From contig JAWBON010000004.1 in the NCBI GenBank assembly GCA_038826135.1, positions 5,159 through 37,158 on the forward strand: DNA of 32,000 nucleotides. Direction: 5' to 3'. The notes beneath the pieces are model-generated. The model was not told where the DNA came from and ran no database searches. It saw only the letters and a list, made by a program, of their open reading frames with translations. Source of the stretch: Candidatus Odinarchaeota archaeon (lineage in GTDB: Archaea > Asgardarchaeota > Odinarchaeia > Odinarchaeales > Odinarchaeaceae). Shown piece after piece: positions 285 through 22,738 of the stretch. A program made the position numbers and the translations under genes. Position 1 is the stretch's first letter. Each line of letters opens with the position of its first letter.

Positions 285-1187
285 TTATAAGAGTAGACTA
301 TTAGCAGCTTCAACCATGTTAACAAGTTTAGCGTAAGCACTCTCAGGGGATAAAACTCTAAGCCCGCAGTCAGGGTGAACGAGAAAACGATGGGAGCCTA
401 TTATGGAAGCGGCTTTCTCTAAAATCTGCTTAATCGAGTTAACAGTTTCAACAGTATTATTTTGAGTATTAACGCATCCAACTCCTAGAATCTTACTATG
501 CCTATCTAAGTCACGTTTACTAATAACTGTAAAATTATCAGGGGAGGCTGCGAATTCAAGACTTAAAACATCCACCCCCTGTATGGAGATTACTTTACTG
601 AACACTTTCTTTATATTCCCACACACATGTAACCCGACAGGGATTTTAATATTCTCGGTGATTATTTTTATAGCAATCTCCCCTAACTCAATAGGCGCGC
701 CTACAGAGTAAAATGGTTCATCTATTTGTAGAAAAACAGCACCGCTCTTTAATAGAATTTCAACCTCTCTTTTAAGAGCTTCACCTAAGTCAACATATAG
801 TTTCTGATCTAAAAACCCTTTATAAGGCGATGATTTATCAATCTTAGAGGATGCTATTAACGTCACCGGCCCTGTTATAATAGCCTTAATAAAAGTACCC
901 TCTTTTAAAAGACTTTTAGCGTATATTAGATCTTGAAGTATAGGCGACTCTTTAGGCGGTGTTATTTTATCCGTTATCTTACACCGATTATCTTTAACTG
1001 TGAAGCCGGGTATGTGATCAGTAAAATATGTAACCATATCCTTCCTAGTCTGACCGTCACTTAACAGCTCCACACCAGCTTTTAACTGTTGCACCACAGC
1101 GTTATTAACCGCATCTAAACCTGTTAAATTGTTTACAGGATAGCTTCCAATAACTGTTTTTAGCAGAGGTTTTAATTCATTTAACAT
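285..1187 (-). CDS. metE: Cobalamin-independent methionine synthase, catalytic-domain-only (core MetE / Mes-type)
   Basis: TVIGSYP N-terminus, QIDEP, Zn ligands H-x-C (GLHVCG), Glu 24 residues after the His (LSLE) and PDCGL. 300 aa, with no N-terminal folate-binding half. Confidence 0.88.
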   Translation of the reverse strand: MLNELKPLLKTVIGSYPVNNLTGLDAVNNAVVQQLKAGVELLSDGQTRKDMVTYFTDHIPGFTVKDNRCKITDKITPPKESPILQDLIYAKSLLKEGTFIKAIITGPVTLIASSKIDKSSPYKGFLDQKLYVDLGEALKREVEILLKSGAVFLQIDEPFYSVGAPIELGEIAIKIITENIKIPVGLHVCGNIKKVFSKVISIQGVDVLSLEFAASPDNFTVISKRDLDRHSKILGVGCVNTQNNTVETVNSIKQILEKAASIIGSHRFLVHPDCGLRVLSPESAYAKLVNMVEAANSLLL

Positions 1188-1221
1188 ATTAAATTCCTTT
1201 TAACAATCATACTATATAATA

Positions 1222-2049
1222 TTAAGTGAGAACCATAAGTATAGAGATTAACGCTAAAACTATGCTGAATATTATTTTAAGTTTTCTCTGAGGCAGATTT
1301 AATGCCAGACGGGTTCCAATCTGTGAACCGACTATCAACCCGATTATTATAGGGATCGCTAAAGAAAAACTGATTAACCCGTAAAACGCGTAACCTGCAG
1401 TGGCGGATATAACTGTAAAAATAATCATTAGAAAACTGGTTCCTACAGCGAATATCATAGGGATTCCGCATATTAGATTCAAAAATGGAACCTTAACAGT
1501 CCCGCCAGCCACACCTATTAACCCCACAGTTAAACCTATAACAAACGAGCCGATAATAGTTAACGGAATGTTGATAACAGCGGTTGCTTTTTCACTCTTA
1601 TAATTATATTCACGCAACCAGAGATATCTTTTTAAAACCGTATTCCGAGTTTTACAACCGTCATCGGTTAAGTTATTCTTAGTACGAGTAGACCGTGCCA
1701 TATATACAGCTACTATAATAATAGCCGCTACAAATATATATGTTAAAATAACTGTGGGTAGTAAAACAGAAAGATGAGTTGCTAAAAACGCTCCAGGAAC
1801 CGCCCCCGCTTCCATTAACAGCCCTAACTTAAAATCCACAACCTTATTCTTAAAGTAAACGATAAAAGAGGATGAAGCCATAAAAAAAGAGCTGAAAATC
1901 ATTGTGGCAATAGCTATATGAATATCTAAACCCAGAAAAATAACTAGTATTGGAATAAACAGTGAGTTACCGCCTATCCCCACCATTGAAGATATTAAGC
2001 CTATTACAACCGCGGTTAGAAGAAGGAACGCGATTAAAAGCAAATCCAT
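1222..2049 (-). CDS. TauE/SafE family sulfite exporter-like membrane protein
   Basis: Two repeated hydrophobic halves with GIGGNSLFIP and GVAGGTVKVP motifs and AVGTS; about 8 TM segments. Confidence 0.85.
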   Translation of the reverse strand: MDLLLIAFLLLTAVVIGLISSMVGIGGNSLFIPILVIFLGLDIHIAIATMIFSSFFMASSSFIVYFKNKVVDFKLGLLMEAGAVPGAFLATHLSVLLPTVILTYIFVAAIIIVAVYMARSTRTKNNLTDDGCKTRNTVLKRYLWLREYNYKSEKATAVINIPLTIIGSFVIGLTVGLIGVAGGTVKVPFLNLICGIPMIFAVGTSFLMIIFTVISATAGYAFYGLISFSLAIPIIIGLIVGSQIGTRLALNLPQRKLKIIFSIVLALISILMVLT

Positions 2050-2118
2050 GGTTAAAACTGAAAAACATCAGTATAAAAGCATTATTAAATTAAAAACTAT
2101 TCAAACGGTTAATTAAAT

Positions 2119-17164: not shown

Positions 17165-17860
17165 TTATACCGCAACCCCCTCGTCAGGCTTAAACATTGG
17201 TTCAAGAGCACTAGGCGCTTTCTCTGGTTTCTTCTCCTCGCTTTTAGCAGCCTTCTCTTTTTTAGGTAGAATATAGCCGCCGATCTTCCCCCCTATAGCT
17301 CCGAAAACTATTGCTAGAACAACGTTTACTACAAGTGCCATTAATAACGGCTGAATAAAAGTGCCTATTAAAGTTGATATGTCAAAGCCACCGCCCATAC
17401 CTGATAATACAAAAGTGATTATTGAGTCGACTAGGCCGCCTATAACGGGAGCGCTTAAAATTTTAATAATATCAACCCCTAACGGGGGGCTTGTTATAAG
17501 AGACATTAACTGGGCTTGAGCGGTTGGATTAGTCATAACCGTGAAAAAGCTTAGAACTCCGAAACCGACCATTAATATGAATCCGAAGAACAGTGTTGAA
17601 ATAGCTACAGCGATACCGCCTTTAGCGCTACCGGCTATTAAACCACCTACTAAAGCAGCTCCTATCAATATAGAAATATGAAGAAGATCATCATAGGGGC
17701 CTATTAAAGCGTAAAACCCTGTTAAAATAACAGTTAGATTTAATCCGAAAACTGGCTCAAACCAGGTTATCAACATAGAATAGCCTTCAGGTAGGAACAA
17801 TAATGTTAAACCGAATATCATCGCTAAAGCTACGATCCAGCCTAATAGTTTACTACCCGT
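17165..17860 (-). CDS. Multi-pass membrane protein of unknown function, probably starting at ACG
   Basis: 5-6 Gly-rich hydrophobic segments and a charged C-tail. SD GGAGGTG lies 5 nt before the in-frame ACG at 17860, which completes TM1 (MGSKLLGWIVALAMIFGLTLLFLP); first ATG is 17821. Confidence 0.7.
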   Translation of the reverse strand, partial: TGSKLLGWIVALAMIFGLTLLFLPEGYSMLITWFEPVFGLNLTVILTGFYALIGPYDDLLHISILIGAALVGGLIAGSAKGGIAVAISTLFFGFILMVGFGVLSFFTVMTNPTAQAQLMSLITSPPLGVDIIKILSAPVIGGLVDSIITFVLSGMGGGFDISTLIGTFIQPLLMALVVNVVLAIVFGAIGGKIGGYILPKKEKAAKSEEKKPEKAPSALEPMFKPDEGVAV

Positions 17861-17996: not shown

Positions 17997-19515
17997 CTAA
18001 GCCATAAGTTTGTTAATAGCTTCAATTATAGCTTCAACACCGGCAATCACTATATCTTCACTAGAACCTCTGGAGGTAAAAACCCTCTTATTTTCATCCT
18101 CGATTGTGACAACAGTCTCAGCGACGGCTTGAGTTCCCCCTGTTATCGCTTCTAATCTAAACTCTTTAAGTTTGAACGGCGCAACCTCCTCGCTTGCGTT
18201 TCTTATAGCGTTTATAGCAGCATCTATAGGACCCACACCGTTAGCTGCAACTATAACAGGTTTACCCCCTATGTGAAGTTTAACAGTGGCGGTGGGGTTT
18301 ATCCTATTACCTGTAACCACTAGAATATCTTCAAGCTTAATCCTTTTCATATCCGGTGGCAGACTTTGAATAACCGCCCTAGCGATCGAACTTATATCCG
18401 CATCTGTAACCGTGATCCCCTTATCACCTAGTGATTTTATCTTTTCAACTATTATTTTTAACTGTTCAGGCGTGTATTTGAAACCTAAATTATCCAGGAT
18501 TTTACCAACACCGTGACCTCCACTCTGCTTCCCTGCAACTATCCTGCTTTTAGCCCCTATCTCCTCAGGCGATATGGGTTCATACGTCATAGGTGATTCT
18601 ATAACACCGTGAGCGTGAATCCCACTTTCATGTGAAAAAGCATTCTGGCCAACTACCGCCTTATTCGGAGCCAAAGGAATTCCTGTAATTCGCATTATTC
18701 TCTGGGAGGTTTCATAAATCTTCGAGTAATCTAGGTTAAGTTTAACCCCATACATGTATTTTAACGCTACAGCTACTTCTTCAAGAGAGGCGTTACCGGC
18801 TCTTTCTCCAAGACCGTTAACACAGCAGTGAGGTTGAACAACCCCCTCCTCTATTCCAGCTAAAGTATTAGCCACCGCCAAGCCCATATCATTATGGCAA
18901 TGTACAGAGATATTAGCTCTTGTAATGCTTTTAACTTCGCGCACTATTTTTTTCATAGCTATCGGGATAGCTACACCTACAGTATCAGGTATATCAAGGT
19001 ATGCGGCGCCGGCTTCGGAGACCTTTCTAAAAACCTCTTTTAAAAAGTCAAGTCTAGTTCTTGTAGCATCTTCAGCTGAGAATTCAACTTCTATTCCATG
19101 ATCTCTGATATATTCAACAGCCCAGACCGCTCTCTCCACAACCTGTTGGGGATCCATGTGCAGCTTATATTTCATGTGAATTTCGCTGGTAGCTATAAAA
19201 GTATGAATCCTAGATACACTGCAATCTATGGCTTTATCAATATCCTCTTTCTTAGTTCTAGCTAAAGCGCATATTTTCGCTTTAAGCCCCTCATTAGCTA
19301 TCTGCCTGACTGCTTTAGCCTCACCCTCACTTGCAATCGGAAAACCCGCTTCTATAACATCAACCCGTAGTTCATCTAGTAAATGAGCTATCTCTACTTT
19401 ATCATCACTTGTTAAAGCAACACCAGGAGTTTGCTCACCATCCCTAAGTGTTGTGTCAAAAACATATATTTTTTCAGGTAAACTATCAAAGGAGAAAAAT
19501 ATTCCTCCACGCCAA
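17997..19515 (-). CDS. leuA: 2-isopropylmalate synthase; needs a +1 frameshift near codons 7-9 (about 505 aa)
   Basis: DTTLRDGEQTPG, IEAGFP, RIHTFIATS, HCHNDMG, GERAGNA, FSHESGIH and a C-terminal regulatory domain (GVGPIDA). The catalytic frame is open from 19487 with no ATG/GTG/TTG until 19175. CimA is not fully excluded. Confidence 0.8.
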
Positions 19516-19526
19516 TTTCCACACCT
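19483..19526 (-). promoter_or_regulatory. Candidate leader and +1 frameshift cassette of leuA
   Basis: AGGTG, 6 nt, then TTG GCG TGG AGG AAT ATT TTT CTC CTT TGA TAG. The +1 frame continues TTC TCC TTT GAT AGT TTA CCT GAA AAA. Confidence 0.4.
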
Positions 19527-19585
19527 ACCAGTATTATATCTTTAAAAACGGTGTCTAAAACAGTATATTAACCTTATTCCGGTGT

Positions 19586-19957
19586 TTAATTTAATCGTAT
19601 AAGATGCGAGCCGCATTTACTCTCACAATCTGAGGAGCCGAATCCTGGAATAAAAACCCCTAGCCCAGCTATTTTTTTAATAAAATCGCATTCACTCAGA
19701 CATTGGCCTTCAATAATGCATAAACCTTTAATTTTAACATGACTCGATGAGAGCAAATAGTCTATATGCCAGCGTGTTTTTTTACAGGCCCGTAAATGTC
19801 GTAAAACCCTATTCACCAGCTCAGAACCCCCTCTCTTACCTTTACCGGAGCCTACGTAAACGTATAATCCTTTTTTGAAATCCACTAAGCCGAGAGAACC
19901 TGTTTTAAGTTTGAACCCCTTACTAACACTTATTAAAAGATAATATATCCCTTTCAA
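19586..19957 (-). CDS. DUF123 / GIY-YIG (Uri) superfamily putative nuclease
   Basis: KGIYYL, GLYVYVGSG, RVLRH, KKTRWHIDYLL, EC and GFGSSDC motifs. Confidence 0.85.
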   Translation of the reverse strand: MKGIYYLLISVSKGFKLKTGSLGLVDFKKGLYVYVGSGKGKRGGSELVNRVLRHLRACKKTRWHIDYLLSSSHVKIKGLCIIEGQCLSECDFIKKIAGLGVFIPGFGSSDCESKCGSHLIRLN

Positions 19958-20181: not shown

Positions 20182-21129
20182 ATGAACGGGGGGTTCGGAA
20201 TAATTCATAACATATACATCTTAGACACTAACGGTATTCCCATCTTCACCCGTATTTACGGTGAGATAAAGGTGGATCCGACTTTAATCTCAGGGTACAT
20301 CAGCGCGCAGAGCTCGTTCTTTAAAGAGATTACAGGCCAGGACCTAGAAATGTTCGCAACTAAAGATTATAATTTCTGGCTTAGAAGAGTCGGCAGATTT
20401 CTCATAGTAATCGTCACTAGTAAAGACGTTGACCCGAAAATCATGAAGTGGAAACTATCTCAGATTCAACTAGCATTTATTATGAACCTTGAAAAAGATT
20501 CTTTAAAAACGATGATCGATTCAGTCACATTTAACTCCCTTAATTTTATTTTAGATAACACCAGGTCTGATGATTTAACCACTATAATTAAACATTTAAT
20601 CTTAGGAATCACTATTATAATAGTGGGACAGAATAGGGAGAGCGTTGCTAAATATATTTACACATTATTAACTGTCTCACCTGTTTATAAGGAAACATAC
20701 TTTTACGAGGATAGAAATGTTTTTTCAGATGGGGCTATAATAGGATCGATTAAAACAGATATAAACAGTATTTTAAGCGATAAAAGTTTCCTTTACTATG
20801 AATTTGAAACCAGCATTATTAAACTTAACAATTTAACCTTTGATTTAAATAAAAAAGCTTTAAGCGATTTCATAAGCGACTTGATCTCAAAGTGCAGAAG
20901 TATGAGTGAGATAACAGGCATAGATTTTATCAGAAATAATCTGAGGAGAATACTGAGAGGAAAGACCGCTATTAAAGAGATAATTATTAAGAAGGGAAAA
21001 CTAAGATTTGAAGACATAATAAACAGTTTAAAGATAAGTGAAGATGATTTTCCAGCAATTTTAGAGCTGTTGCAAGATGATTTAAAAAACATTATAATTG
21101 AAGATGACTCTATTTATTATCAAGGGTGA
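20182..21129 (+). CDS. Longin-domain protein with DENN/folliculin-like middle region and C-terminal winged helix
   Basis: Longin pattern IHNIYILDTNGIPIF...LISGYISAQSSFFKEITG; middle HLILGITIIIVG...YTLLTVSP; C-terminal KEIIIKKGKLRFEDIINSLKIS...ILELL. Confidence 0.65.
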   Translation: MNGGFGIIHNIYILDTNGIPIFTRIYGEIKVDPTLISGYISAQSSFFKEITGQDLEMFATKDYNFWLRRVGRFLIVIVTSKDVDPKIMKWKLSQIQLAFIMNLEKDSLKTMIDSVTFNSLNFILDNTRSDDLTTIIKHLILGITIIIVGQNRESVAKYIYTLLTVSPVYKETYFYEDRNVFSDGAIIGSIKTDINSILSDKSFLYYEFETSIIKLNNLTFDLNKKALSDFISDLISKCRSMSEITGIDFIRNNLRRILRGKTAIKEIIIKKGKLRFEDIINSLKISEDDFPAILELLQDDLKNIIIEDDSIYYQG

Positions 21130-21148
21130 AATACTGGTTGGTAAAGAT

Positions 21149-21922
21149 ATGATGGAATTTCAAATAAAACAGTTTTTAAAAATCAACCCGGAGTGTTTGA
21201 ATGAGCCTATAGCCATAGTTGGTATGCCAGGTATAGCTAACGTTGGCAAAAATGTTGTAATGACATGTGTTGAAAGCTTAAAAGCGGATAAAGCTCTAGA
21301 GATATTCTTTCAAGATTTTCCAGCTCAAGTATTAGTGGACAGTAACGCTGTATTAAATATTCCTTCAGCAACGATATACCACTCTAAGAATACGGTTGGA
21401 GCTCAGGATATATTCTTTTTAACAGGTGATTTCCAGCCTTCAACACCTAAAGGAATATACGAGCTCTCTGAGAGAGCGGCTCAGATATTCTCTAATTTTA
21501 AAACTAAACTAATCATCTCCACAGGCGCCTTTATGACCAACACTCAAGTTCTCAGCCCGAAAGTTCATGTATCCGCAACATCCCCGGAAATATTGCACTT
21601 ATTCATCTCATATAGGGATGCTGTTATCATGGATTACGGGACAATCAGCGGAGCTAACGGTTTAATACCTGTAATAGCTAATAAAAAATTTGGGATAGAC
21701 GGAGCATGCCTGCTAGCTGATACGAATCCTATGGTTATGATAGATCCTCTAGCTTCAAAGACAATCATCAACTTACTAAACCAGGTTTTTAACTTAAACG
21801 TTGATGTAACCAGCTTACTAGCTCAGATAAGGAACATGGAGGAATTATTAGAAGAAATAAAAACACAGTTTATGAGCAGGAAACCGTCAGAGGATTTAAA
21901 GCGGCAATCATATATAAGTTAA
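21149..21922 (+). CDS. PAC2-family (proteasome assembly chaperone-like) protein
   Basis: IVGMPGIANVGK, FFQDFPAQV, GDFQP, ISGANGLI, CLLADT and DPLAS motifs. Start moved to the ATG at 21149. Confidence 0.88.
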   Translation: MMEFQIKQFLKINPECLNEPIAIVGMPGIANVGKNVVMTCVESLKADKALEIFFQDFPAQVLVDSNAVLNIPSATIYHSKNTVGAQDIFFLTGDFQPSTPKGIYELSERAAQIFSNFKTKLIISTGAFMTNTQVLSPKVHVSATSPEILHLFISYRDAVIMDYGTISGANGLIPVIANKKFGIDGACLLADTNPMVMIDPLASKTIINLLNQVFNLNVDVTSLLAQIRNMEELLEEIKTQFMSRKPSEDLKRQSYIS

Positions 21923-21950
21923 ATCAATTATTTATCTTGGTAGTGTTTAA

Positions 21951-22316
21951 ATGAGTATTAGAATAATAGCTGAAAAACTGATTAAGTTATATGAGAAGTT
22001 TAAAGACCAGGGTAAACAAGATTTTATGTTGAAAAGTTTAGGAGGCATTACGGTTCGGGTGTTTGCCAGCGACACCGGTGAGTGTTTTAATATAGTTATA
22101 GGTGATGGTGTTCACATTGAAGACTGCTCGCAGAAAAAGCCTAATATTACTATAGAGGGGTGCAGCGGGGTGTTAAAAGAGGTTTTGGAGAGTAAGAGTC
22201 AGGCTTTCTATGATAAGGCTCAAACGGAGGGTAGGATTAAATTAAGGACCTGTAATATTCGTGGTAGATTGTTTTATTCACGTTTTAAGAAGTGGCTAAA
22301 TTTCAACATTATGTAG
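21951..22316 (+). CDS. SCP2 sterol/lipid-carrier-like domain protein
   Basis: 121 aa with SCP2 pattern (F-x-I-x-I-x-DG ... PNITIEG ... A-x2-EGRIKL). Confidence 0.6.
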   Translation: MSIRIIAEKLIKLYEKFKDQGKQDFMLKSLGGITVRVFASDTGECFNIVIGDGVHIEDCSQKKPNITIEGCSGVLKEVLESKSQAFYDKAQTEGRIKLRTCNIRGRLFYSRFKKWLNFNIM

Positions 22317-22372
22317 TAGCATGACAAAATTAATAAGCTAGTATATCTACAATATTACGAGCGTGTTTCAGT

Positions 22373-22738
22373 ATGCCACTAGGCGTAATAATAATAAAAT
22401 GGGATAACAAACTAGGCGGAGTAGTGGAGTCAAGGTATCTTAGGCGAGGGTGGATTCCACCATCGCTTCCAACAACACTGCTTTCAATGCATTTTCCAAC
22501 CATGAAAATTGATCAGAAAGCAGTAGACTTTGTAACCACTAAGATCGGTAATGTGAGAGTTTTAAGCTATTTTATAGGTACAAAAGCGAAAAGGTCAGTA
22601 GCTCTCATACTAGAAGAAACTGAGGAGCCTGATATTTTCAAGGATAAAATTATAAAATTTTCTGAAAAAATAAGCAGCGAGTTTGAAAAATGTAATTCGA
22701 AAATAGCTAAGTATTACGGGGAAGTTTTTGAAAAATAA
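22373..22738 (+). CDS. Stand-alone longin/uDENN-like domain protein
   Basis: MPLGVIIIKWDNKLGGVVESRY and VLSYF...VALILEETEEPDIF, a pattern I associate with Asgard longin-like families. Confidence 0.55.
   Translation: MPLGVIIIKWDNKLGGVVESRYLRRGWIPPSLPTTLLSMHFPTMKIDQKAVDFVTTKIGNVRVLSYFIGTKAKRSVALILEETEEPDIFKDKIIKFSEKISSEFEKCNSKIAKYYGEVFEK

Follow-up and report, generated by a model that had tools for sequence, protein, structure and literature searches.

The leuA gene in the 32,000-nucleotide stretch of Candidatus Odinarchaeota archaeon DNA analysed here (the window) is probably translated by way of a programmed +1 frameshift at the sequence UUU_CUC (19497-19492), which most likely senses the charged tRNA of the pathway end product. 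Comparison with other archaea reveals an out-of-frame architecture that is deeply conserved, a nearly invariant shift core and an A-site codon matching the end product of the pathway, and from these sequences we infer that ribosomes do shift at the site, the efficiency of the shift and its dependence on the supply of aminoacyl-tRNA. The leader looks like a previously undescribed feedback switch, and no prior description of such a leuA or cimA frameshift leader was found in the literature searched. The chances seem about even that an ancient archaea-wide principle lies behind it, in which a 'hungry-codon' +1 frameshift turns on LeuA and CimA, the enzymes that open the leucine and the isoleucine pathway, within a leader of 5-25 codons whose single 0-frame A-site codon specifies their own end product, a device that would probably be older than the LeuA/CimA duplication and repeatedly lost via one-base deletions.

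The leuA gene and its leader region

leuA is located on the minus strand, as are all the features described below, with its stop at 17997, and the frame is open from 19541, after TAA 19544-19542. The whole protein scores above the cutoff of the family models NF002085 (639 bits, cutoff 517) and NF002086 (541 bits, cutoff 532), and the gene is therefore a 2-isopropylmalate synthase (LeuA) gene; in the tree its product is placed among the LeuA clades, separate from the CimA clade. The conserved FDTTLRDGEQ is found in this frame from 19460, and the first canonical in-frame start, an ATG at 19175 (19173-19175), is implausible as the LeuA start because it lies 95 codons 3' of the catalytic DTTLRDGEQ. 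The initial annotation had noted that the LeuA frame has no canonical start, which holds, but its figure of 104 codons leaves out the stretch that overlaps the leader; in full, 122 in-frame codons without ATG, GTG or TTG cover the conserved N-terminus of LeuA. A genome-wide scan gave no second real gene with an equally long start-less 5' stretch. PriS, a Mtq2-like gene and a CinA-like gene in the same genome are apparently without a canonical start, and have an SD-spaced ATA or ATC.

A Shine-Dalgarno-like sequence GGTAGGTG (19522-19529, with AGGTG at 19526-19522), invariant in four congeners, is found 6 nt before a TTG start codon (19513-19515) that opens another frame, just as had been noted at first, and relatives have GAGGT, AGGTG or GGAGG 6-8 nt 5' of the homologous out-of-frame start. 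The leader ORF (19486-19515) has nine sense codons and reads TTG GCG TGG AGG AAT ATT TTT CTC CTT TGA TAG, encoding MAWRNIFLL followed by TGA (19488-19486) and a second stop TAG (19485-19483). The TTG is homologous to the ATG or TTG at the M-A-W position of relatives, both shifted (L131, L132, L137, G237) and in-frame (L136, L076), and since homologs begin at this position the leader start is assigned to TTG 19515 and not to a further GTG of the leader frame (19524-19522), which directly follows TAG 19527-19525. A TATA-like box TTAATATA (19565-19572), kept in 4/4 Odinarchaeia genomes, is a candidate element of the promoter, and transcription directed by it would leave a 5' UTR of about 27 nt; an alternative TATA-like sequence TTTTTAAA is located at 19548-19541.

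The LeuA frame is +1 relative to the leader frame, and from the first post-shift codon TCC (19493-19491) to the stop (17997-19493) it is collinear with in-frame homologs; the predicted product has 505 amino acids including 7 leader residues and begins MAWRNIF followed by SFDSLPEKIYVFDTTLRDGEQ. The proposed shift site (19492-19497), invariant in four congeners, consists of the P-site Phe codon UUU (19497-19495) and the 0-frame A-site Leu codon CUC (19494-19492), with re-pairing on UUC (19496-19494), and a T5 run is found at 19499-19495. CUC is the second-rarest Leu codon of the genome, with 8% of the Leu codons; the ARAGORN tRNA inventory of the MAG (31 genes) is incomplete, with unreliable intron calls, and was excluded from the evidence. 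An internal SD-like GGAGG (19504-19508) 6 nt 5' of the P-site codon is a possible stimulator of the shift, as in prfB, and is also the 5' arm of a local hairpin (19491-19508) formed by GGAGGAA (19508-19502) and UUUCUCC (19497-19491) with the loop UAUU, present in both the MFE and the centroid fold and retained with 6-7 bp in four congeners. Beyond this 7-bp hairpin, folding of 19420-19560 gave no significant structure (z = -0.46 versus shuffles), and an Rfam scan of the whole window gave no match. Other lineages keep a purine-rich GG(N)GAUC-like tract, which in Methanomicrobia ends 2-3 nt upstream of the shift codon.

According to the proposed mechanism, translation would start at the SD-spaced UUG (19515), in frame -1 relative to LeuA, and read M-A-W-R-N-I-F until peptidyl-tRNA-Phe is positioned on UUU (19497-19495) with the Leu codon CUC next to be decoded. 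When leucine is ample, charged tRNA-Leu would be fast enough to keep decoding in frame, and with UGA UAG two codons on only a 9-residue peptide and no LeuA would be made. When leucine is scarce the A site would be empty and tRNA-Phe (anticodon GAA) would slip +1 onto UUC, where the pairing is better, with G34-C instead of G34.U. UCC would then be read in the LeuA frame, giving full-length 2-isopropylmalate synthase that begins MAWRNIF-SFDSLPEK, with the predicted junction peptide MAWRNIFSFDSLPEK (alternatively MAWRIFFSFDSLPEK); the upstream GGAGG may stimulate the shift like the SD-like element of prfB. The same device with UUU_AUY in cimA would sense isoleucine.

Conservation of the frame relation and of the A-site codon

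Three further Odinarchaeia genomes, one of them a closed single contig, share the frame relation and have 89-91% amino acid identity in LeuA. Their leaders encode MAWRN-(I/T/L)-F-L-(L/V/I)-stop, and the first +1 codon among the four congeners is TCC, TCC, TCG or TCA, which are synonymous. As the chief rival to its own reading, the initial annotation named one T too many in the T5 run, from sequencing error or mutation; the corresponding sequences in the four genomes are ATTTTT, ATCTTT, ACCTTT and CTTTTT, and because the congeners keep the frame relation although the run is not conserved, this explanation fails. The frame is intact and the break is shared, so there is no sign of a decaying pseudogene among these genomes. 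A metagenome scan gave no closer Odinarchaeia relatives, the best matches having at most 59% identity. A conserved junction of two frames with the downstream frame under purifying selection is the pattern by which a programmed +1 frameshift is recognized, and it is seen in the four congeners as well as in the Asgard families, the 107 distinct Methanomicrobia sequences and the other lineages described next.

The comparison of leuA 5' ends in related genomes that had been called for was carried out, and an out-of-frame leader with a Leu codon proved to be conserved in more than 150 archaeal genomes. An out-of-frame SD, start and short ORF are found in the other Asgard families G237, g3, f7 and f19, and the same architecture is present in the metagenome relatives L131, 132, 134, 135 and 137, and outside Asgard in Methanotrichaceae, Halorutilales and the class Methanomicrobia. 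The ortholog is found in 145 of the 151 Methanomicrobia genomes, and all 107 distinct leuA 5' regions examined have the architecture. In most of these a TATA box starts 30-32 nt 5' of the out-of-frame AUG, indicating that the mRNA should be leaderless with this AUG at its 5' end. None of the 49 bacterial leuA genes was flagged with the architecture, the one bacterial gene (L075) picked up by the loose classifier having an ordinary SD-ATG; the same classifier called L346 and L351 'Leu' from an upstream GTT CTC, where the real site is TTT ATC, and G183, whose 5' region was not recovered, stands outside the comparison.

Homologs with a single frame support the predicted fusion. Those beginning MAWRGYFTESELPEK are collinear with MAWRNIF-SFDSLPEK, and the same length as the fusion is found for MAWRGYFTESELPEKVVLFDTT (L133, 136, 138, 139, 157, 181), a group nested within the shifted clade of the tree, and for MAWRNMISGESKLPEKV (L076). 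In the Asgard genome G011 an own-frame TAG is located directly 5' of TTC, and entry into the LeuA frame must therefore be at or after that point.

In the shift core of leuA a Leu codon comes directly after NUU; it is CUU, CUC or CUA, and in one lineage UUG. Counting the UUG variant, 128 of the 131 shifted genes have Leu in the 0-frame A site. T6, C7 and T8 are invariant in the 107 Methanomicrobia sequences, the A-site codon being CTT in 98, CTC in 6 and CTA in 3. Changes at position 9 are silent in the leader frame but alter the LeuA-frame amino acid, and from position 10 on it is the other way round. At the first base of the P-site codon 55 sequences have T, 49 have C, 3 have A and none has G, the distribution predicted if G34-A35 tRNAs re-pair on UUC. 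UUU_Ynn is a documented +1-prone motif (PMC5009743), and in Odinarchaeia the P-site tRNA could re-pair in the +1 frame, from UUU to UUC; cimA (UUU to UUA, where UUU_A gives poor re-pairing at the wobble position), the Asgard GUU and the f19 UUC variants fit less well.

The paralog cimA encodes citramalate synthase of the isoleucine pathway, and its clade, with 100% local tree support, contains named (R)-citramalate synthases. Here UUU is followed by AUU or AUC (Ile) in 69 of the 70 shifted genes (Odinarchaeia 4/4, g3 2/2, Bathyarchaeia 31/31, Methanomicrobia 29/30 and three others); within Asgard the gene was found in only two genera. The idea that a Leu codon occupies the leuA A site is thus borne out by comparison, with Leu in 128/131 leuA as against Ile in 69/70 cimA genes, a correlation of clade and codon that goes back to few independent evolutionary events. 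Leaders carrying codons for the end product of their own pathway, Leu in leuA and Ile in cimA, are what would be expected of an attenuator-type control.

Alternative explanations

A constitutive +1 shift at UUU_C is unlikely, but it accounts for part of the data. It would have a fixed efficiency and give a low expression level, or represent a tolerated 'frozen' indel, and the Leu and Ile codons would be by-products of a hydrophobic N-terminal peptide (F-F in LeuA, L-S/F in CimA), with no sensing. TTC TTC in the LeuA frame automatically yields NTT CTT in the leader, and TTA TNN in the CimA frame yields TTT ATN; moreover, the A-site codon is Arg (CGT) in 3/5 genomes of Asgard f7, and one Methanomicrobia cimA (G321) has CTT instead of ATY. 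However, the own-frame Phe codon is always TTC (107/107), and the own-frame Leu codon at the cimA site is always UUA (about 70/70) despite six-fold degeneracy, so that what is constrained is the nucleotides or the leader frame and not the peptide of LeuA or CimA. Halorutilales have UUU UUG, and thus keep Leu by a different route though the LeuA-frame residue becomes Trp, and the F-F or L-S motif is absent from in-frame homologs. The pairing of Leu with leuA and Ile with cimA in several phyla would also be hard to obtain by chance, and a shift that depends on the end product is the reading we prefer.

That there is no frameshift and translation of LeuA begins in its own frame, at a codon that is non-canonical or peculiar to a lineage, for example AUA 19502-19500, with the out-of-frame ORF as a separate regulatory uORF, is improbable. 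Such codons do occur: at this place one congener has AUC and Asgard f7 has AUG, many Methanomicrobia carry a UUG, CUG or AUG slightly further upstream, within a few codons, almost every lineage has AUH or AUG as the own-frame codon following GGN, and three other genes of this genome apparently use SD-spaced ATA or ATC, as mentioned above. Close to the leader, many leuA and cimA genes of Methanomicrobia and some Asgard genes also have ATG, GTG or TTG in their own frame, and could therefore be expressed without shifting. Against this, the AUA of Odinarchaeia follows GGAGG at a distance of 1 nt and AGGTG at a distance of 19 nt, a bad SD geometry, while the spacing of the UUG is ideal. The positions of own-frame starts are not conserved, and stops are met in relatives, with an own-frame TAG two codons before TGG in G002 and ATG TAG at this place in G011. 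On the predicted leaderless mRNAs of Methanomicrobia only the out-of-frame AUG is 5'-terminal, and according to the in-frame homologs MAWR(N) belongs to the protein. A ribosome stalled in the uORF would furthermore occlude such a start, giving the wrong regulatory sign. The SD geometry, the stops of relatives and the in-frame homologs thus all speak against ATA or ATC as the start, and initiation at the out-of-frame UUG followed by a shift is retained.

It is very doubtful that the shift takes place elsewhere in the overlap, either three codons earlier at AGG_A, GGG_N or CGG_G, with an Arg or Gly tRNA moving onto GGN, or at CUU_UGA before the leader stop as in prfB. In the three codons 5' of the P-site of Methanomicrobia the variation is mostly at leader-frame first positions, with GGN-ATY-GTY varying synonymously, which resembles LeuA-frame third-position variation (G-I/V-V/A-F) and may mean that ribosomes enter the LeuA frame before this site or that the sequence is constrained in both frames; Asgard f19 has AGG AGG tandems, and G000 and G003 have CUU_UGA or CUU_UAA, the same form as prfB. 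On the other hand, 34 of the 107 Methanomicrobia sequences have GCA GGT CGC at the earlier position, with nothing slippery, the own-frame TAG of G011 comes after that point, and N or D at leader codon 5 is conserved, also in the in-frame L076; NGG_N is accordingly rejected as the shift site, being impossible in these sequences. The initial annotation had offered two adjacent slips, of which UUU to UUC with CUC in the A site stands and is conserved across phyla, but CUU before UGA is rejected as not conserved, the last sense codon and stop of congeners including GTT_TAA and ATT_TAA (CTT, GTT or ATT in the four congeners; ACC, CGT, GAG or TTC elsewhere).

An artefact or decay (sequencing or assembly error, pseudogene, or a correction made in the RNA, through polymerase slippage or editing) is hardly credible in spite of the MAG of 105 contigs and the T5 run at the site, given the frame relation in four independent Odinarchaeia assemblies and more than 150 other genomes without a conserved homopolymer, a LeuA frame of 498 intact codons under purifying selection, and no conserved run of at least 6 identical bases, on which ground transcriptional slippage is rejected.

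Relation to known recoding and attenuation systems

The proposed leuA device has a close likeness to prfB, the gene for bacterial release factor 2 with its +1 shift at CUU_UGA. There too a short 5' ORF with a nearby stop precedes a main product in the +1 frame, and an SD-like purine tract is located upstream. As proposed for leuA, a slowly filled A site lets the P-site tRNA of prfB move forward by one base, and filling of the A site depends on the end product of the gene's own function, giving negative feedback. The A-site codon of leuA is however a sense codon for an aminoacyl-tRNA, where prfB has a stop codon for its own protein product, the P-site is NUU_C and not CUU_U, and the SD-like spacing is 6 nt in Odinarchaeia and 2-3 nt for the GAUC tract of Methanomicrobia as compared to 3 nt in prfB; the leuA system is also archaeal and encodes a biosynthetic enzyme. 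Bacterial leader-peptide attenuation (leuL, ilvL, hisL, trpL) likewise has a short leader ORF with end-product codons, the cognate codon for each pathway, and stalling at scarce charged tRNA turns the biosynthetic gene on. Unlike these, leuA would work without terminator/antiterminator RNA and without a need for transcription-translation coupling; no such alternative structures were found at its leader, which overlaps the coding region, folds with the z value given above and has no Rfam match. leuA would also use a single regulatory codon instead of a run, its leader overlaps the gene and becomes the N-terminus, and the output would be a change of reading frame and not transcriptional read-through.

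At UUU_Y sites (influenza A PA-X UCC_UUU_CGU, Yersinia YopN-TyeA, amalgaviruses) tRNA-Phe moves from UUU to UUC before a slow codon, and shifting at the yeast Ty1 site (CUU_AGG_C) requires that the tRNA reading the A-site codon be scarce; in those cases the codon is constitutively rare and two products are made in a fixed ratio, whereas in leuA the A-site codon specifies the amino acid made by the pathway, and translation in the 0 frame would yield no more than a 9-residue peptide. The 'hungry codon' frameshifting provoked experimentally in E. coli by amino-acid starvation also involves aminoacyl-tRNA limitation that empties the A site and leads to P-site slippage, but it is described as an error or laboratory effect, and leuA would be a conserved, selected regulatory device; according to a review the natural use of hungry-codon frameshifting is unclear (PMC5009743). 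The fucA1 gene of Saccharolobus solfataricus is also a cellular archaeal gene with two overlapping frames and recoding, and according to a review of 2021 no other cellular frameshift has been demonstrated in archaea (PMC8211752). There, however, the shift is -1, on A_AAA_AAT in the middle of the gene; it concerns one species and is not known to sense anything.

If the proposed leuA switch is real, a single codon and a slippery P-site would provide direct feedback at the ribosome, a structure-free functional analog of bacterial attenuation that works on both leaderless and SD-led mRNAs, with conservation reaching from Asgard archaea to methanogens. A programmed +1 frameshift in a cellular gene would then be known from archaea for the first time, beside the one known archaeal recoding case of such type. 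The switch would also be a natural, selected use of hungry-codon frameshifting, and would correct hundreds of leuA and cimA annotations that now have truncated or arbitrary starts or are flagged as broken. To our knowledge archaea have no classical bacterial attenuators or T-boxes, and the coupling of their amino-acid supply to biosynthetic gene expression is largely unknown. The hypothesis is directly testable in cultured Methanomicrobiales.

A scan of the same genome for the leader architecture recovered only leuA and its paralog cimA. Two leader-like candidates, C70 (a coiled-coil protein) and C12 (prephenate dehydratase-like), were rejected as they have ordinary own-frame starts, and the third paralog, which is homocitrate-synthase-like, also has an ordinary start.

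The frame break in leuA

The gene for 2-isopropylmalate synthase, leuA (NF002085, 639 bits against a cutoff of 517), is located on the minus strand, where the LeuA frame is open from 19541, carries the FDTTLRDGEQ motif from 19460 and ends at 17997. The ATG at 19175 is the first ATG, GTG or TTG of this frame; 122 open codons precede it, and it lies 95 codons past the catalytic motif. An SD-like AGGTG (19526-19522, minus) is found 6 nt before TTG 19515, which on the same strand opens the leader TTG GCG TGG AGG AAT ATT TTT CTC CTT TGA TAG with LeuA in the +1 frame relative to it, and the frame break described in the initial annotation, an SD-spaced leader out of frame with a LeuA that has no nearby start, is therefore correct. 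CTC is the second-rarest Leu codon of the genome (8%), whose tRNA genes were detected incompletely. The leader region folds no better than shuffled sequence, and an Rfam scan of the window gave no match. A 7 bp hairpin (19491-19508, minus) can form between the shift-site tract UUUCUCC and an SD-like GGAGGAA inside the leader; all four Odinarchaeia genomes retain 6–7 bp of it, and relatives could form a comparable purine/pyrimidine pairing.

The source MAG has 1.26 Mb in 105 contigs, and among named relatives a Candidatus Odinarchaeia MAG is the nearest (91% amino acid identity). leuA is present at 89–91% identity in three further genomes of the same genus, one of them a single contig, and all congeners show TTGGCGTGGAGGAAT-NNN-TTTCTC-NTT-T(G/A)A with LeuA in the +1 frame. 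An extra T inserted by sequencing into the T5 run, the main alternative proposed earlier, is excluded since the run differs among the four congeners (ATTTTT, ATCTTT, ACCTTT and CTTTTT) while the frame relation is shared. The first LeuA-frame codon past the proposed slip is TCC, TCC, TCG and TCA, all synonymous. Two adjacent slip sites had been suggested, of which TTT_CTC is conserved among the congeners, but the prfB-like CUU_UGA is not, the last leader codon being CTT, CTT, GTT and ATT.

Spread of the leader among archaea

Comparison of leuA 5' ends finds the out-of-frame leader, mostly with its Leu codon, in many relatives. Orthologs in other Asgard families, with 51–63% identity, follow the same plan: a strong SD 6–8 nt before a TTG or ATG in frame -1 to LeuA, and then a short ORF with an NTT codon followed by CTN (for example MVWRNSFLI-stop, MVWRDRVLLRT-stop, MQRDGVLR-stop and MRRPDFLC...). 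It is also found in five metagenome relatives (MAWRNCVLE-stop) and, outside Asgard archaea, in Methanotrichaceae, Halorutilales and the whole class Methanomicrobia. A leuA ortholog is present in 145 of the 151 Methanomicrobia genomes sampled, and the out-of-frame start with its short ORF is seen in every one of the 107 distinct 5' regions retrieved. In most of these a TATA box begins 30–32 nt upstream of the out-of-frame AUG, a spacing that predicts a leaderless mRNA with its 5'-terminal AUG out of frame with LeuA. Ordinary in-frame starts are found in other Asgard families (e.g. MNEKNDIMVSDMMEK...), in Nitrososphaeria and in most Bathyarchaeia copies, and among bacterial leuA genes, likewise with ordinary in-frame starts, 0 of 49 were flagged by a loose leader classifier. 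Scanning the MAG in full for this leader architecture gave leuA and cimA only; a third paralog has a normal start.

Uninterrupted close homologs exist, MAWRGYFTESELPEKVVLFDTT at six metagenome loci and MAWRNMISGESKLPEKV in Geocrenenecus, and match the predicted Odinarchaeia fusion of MAWRNIF to SFDSLPEKIYVFDTT in length and register, which is evidence that the leader encodes the N-terminus of LeuA. The MAWRGYF group is nested within the shifted clade of Odinarchaeia and Asgard g3 (FastTree local support 96), so that the uninterrupted form looks like a one-base loss.

Proposed slip site and awaiting codon

The frame break in leuA is real, ancient and selected, and in Odinarchaeia LeuA can very probably be made only if the ribosome changes frame within the leader. 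In the best-supported mechanism the P-site tRNA would slip by +1 at NUU_C, in the window at UUU_CUC (19497-19492), while the A-site Leu codon is slow to fill. UUU_Ynn is a documented +1-prone tetranucleotide (PMC5009743). When the 107 Methanomicrobia sequences are anchored on the motif, with leader-frame codons [NAT][YGY][YTT][CTN], T6, C7 and T8 are invariant. The P-site first base is T in 55, C in 49, A in 3 and never G, as would follow from a G34-A35 tRNA (Phe, or Leu-GAG) having to re-pair on UUC. Changes at position 9 (T, C or A) are silent in the leader frame but make the LeuA-frame residue F, S or Y; from position 10 onward it is the LeuA frame that changes silently and the leader frame that changes radically. 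In one Asgard genome a LeuA-frame TAG stands directly 5' of TTC.

The A-site codon is Leu in all 107 Methanomicrobia leuA genes (CTT 98, CTC 6, CTA 3) and in 21 of the 24 other shifted ones, Halorutilales included, where TTT TTG gives Leu by a different route and the LeuA-frame residue becomes Trp. The exceptions are three genomes of the Asgard family f7 with CGT, a family in which most members also have an in-frame ATG. The cimA paralog of this genome lies outside the window (contig C21:14104-15625, plus strand, loci L002/L321), in the (R)-citramalate synthase clade with support 100, its best named relatives being Methanocaldococcus and Methanothrix CimA. Its out-of-frame leader, ATG AGG GAT TAT TTT ATT GGA TAG, has an Ile codon in the place of the Leu codon of leuA, an arrangement kept in Bathyarchaeia, Methanomicrobia and Methanotrichaceae. 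TTT ATY (ATT or ATC) is found in 4/4 shifted cimA genes of Odinarchaeia, 2/2 of Asgard g3, 31/31 of Bathyarchaeia, 29/30 of Methanomicrobia and 3/3 of others, and the CimA-frame Leu codon at the slip spot is TTA without exception. A cimA-clade gene in one compared genome, G321, has TTT CTT (Leu) instead. leuA and cimA are divergent neighbours in several Methanomicrobia genomes (loci L405, L407, L410, L419 and L429 in genomes G322, G348, G326, G353 and G321), with some 300 bp between them and a frameshift leader on each of the two genes.

The awaiting codon thus specifies the amino acid of its own pathway, leucine in leuA and isoleucine in cimA, the same logic as in bacterial leader peptides, here applied to a frameshift. 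The correlation is maintained across phyla through extensive synonymous turnover, but the clades are few, and so are the independent events behind it. The complete model, leucine sensing included, is held with moderate confidence, a constitutive shift at the same site being one remaining rival. Another is initiation of LeuA in its own frame at a non-canonical codon; three other genes of this organism have a well-spaced SD before ATA or ATC. A slip at a different position is the third; the three codons before the P-site do vary in Methanomicrobia as though read in the LeuA frame, but an earlier slip at AGG_A or GGG_N is argued against by 34 of the 107 sequences, which have GCA GGT CGC there, with nothing slippery.

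Full-text literature searches gave no account of a leuA or cimA frameshift, and such a shift is absent from a 2021 review of archaeal recoding (PMC8211752), a 2016 frameshifting compendium (PMC5009743) and the GeneTack survey (PMC3711429). According to the 2021 review, the single demonstrated cellular frameshift in archaea is the -1 shift of fucA1 (PMC8211752).

Other recoding-like genes and the surroundings of leuA

The three genes with ATA or ATC belong to five conserved ones that have no ATG, GTG or TTG near their expected N-termini, on contigs C47 (PriS), C35 (Mtq2/HemK-like), C93 (CinA-like), C25 (phosphoesterase) and C10 (UvrC). This organism may now and then use non-canonical start codons, unless the assembly is wrong at these places. 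A CitG-like gene (triphosphoribosyl-dephospho-CoA synthase-like; contig C79, about 1037-2094, plus strand, locus L397; congener locus L400) is broken after ...EVSGWPKP (CCT) by TGA and a gap, of 22 nt here against 24 nt in the congener whose genome is closed, and restarts at a matching Pro codon (PGNIHR...). A stem-loop with compensatory changes carries the take-off codon and the stop in its 5' arm, and the break resembles translational bypassing of the T4 gene 60 type, or a mini-intron.

In this genome leuA stands outside any leu operon: a DUF123 (GIY-YIG-like) gene (19586-19957, minus) lies upstream and a 218-aa ORF without a Pfam match (17165-17821, minus) downstream, with a glycosyltransferase (DUF3492 plus GT1) and a PelG-like exporter farther out. 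At 20182-22738 (plus) the genes form a eukaryote-like neighbourhood of the kind typically seen in Asgard archaea: a longin-domain protein of Fuz/MON1 type (weak Pfam hit) and, overlapping with it, a PAC2 proteasome-assembly-chaperone homolog, followed by two 121-aa ORFs without Pfam matches.
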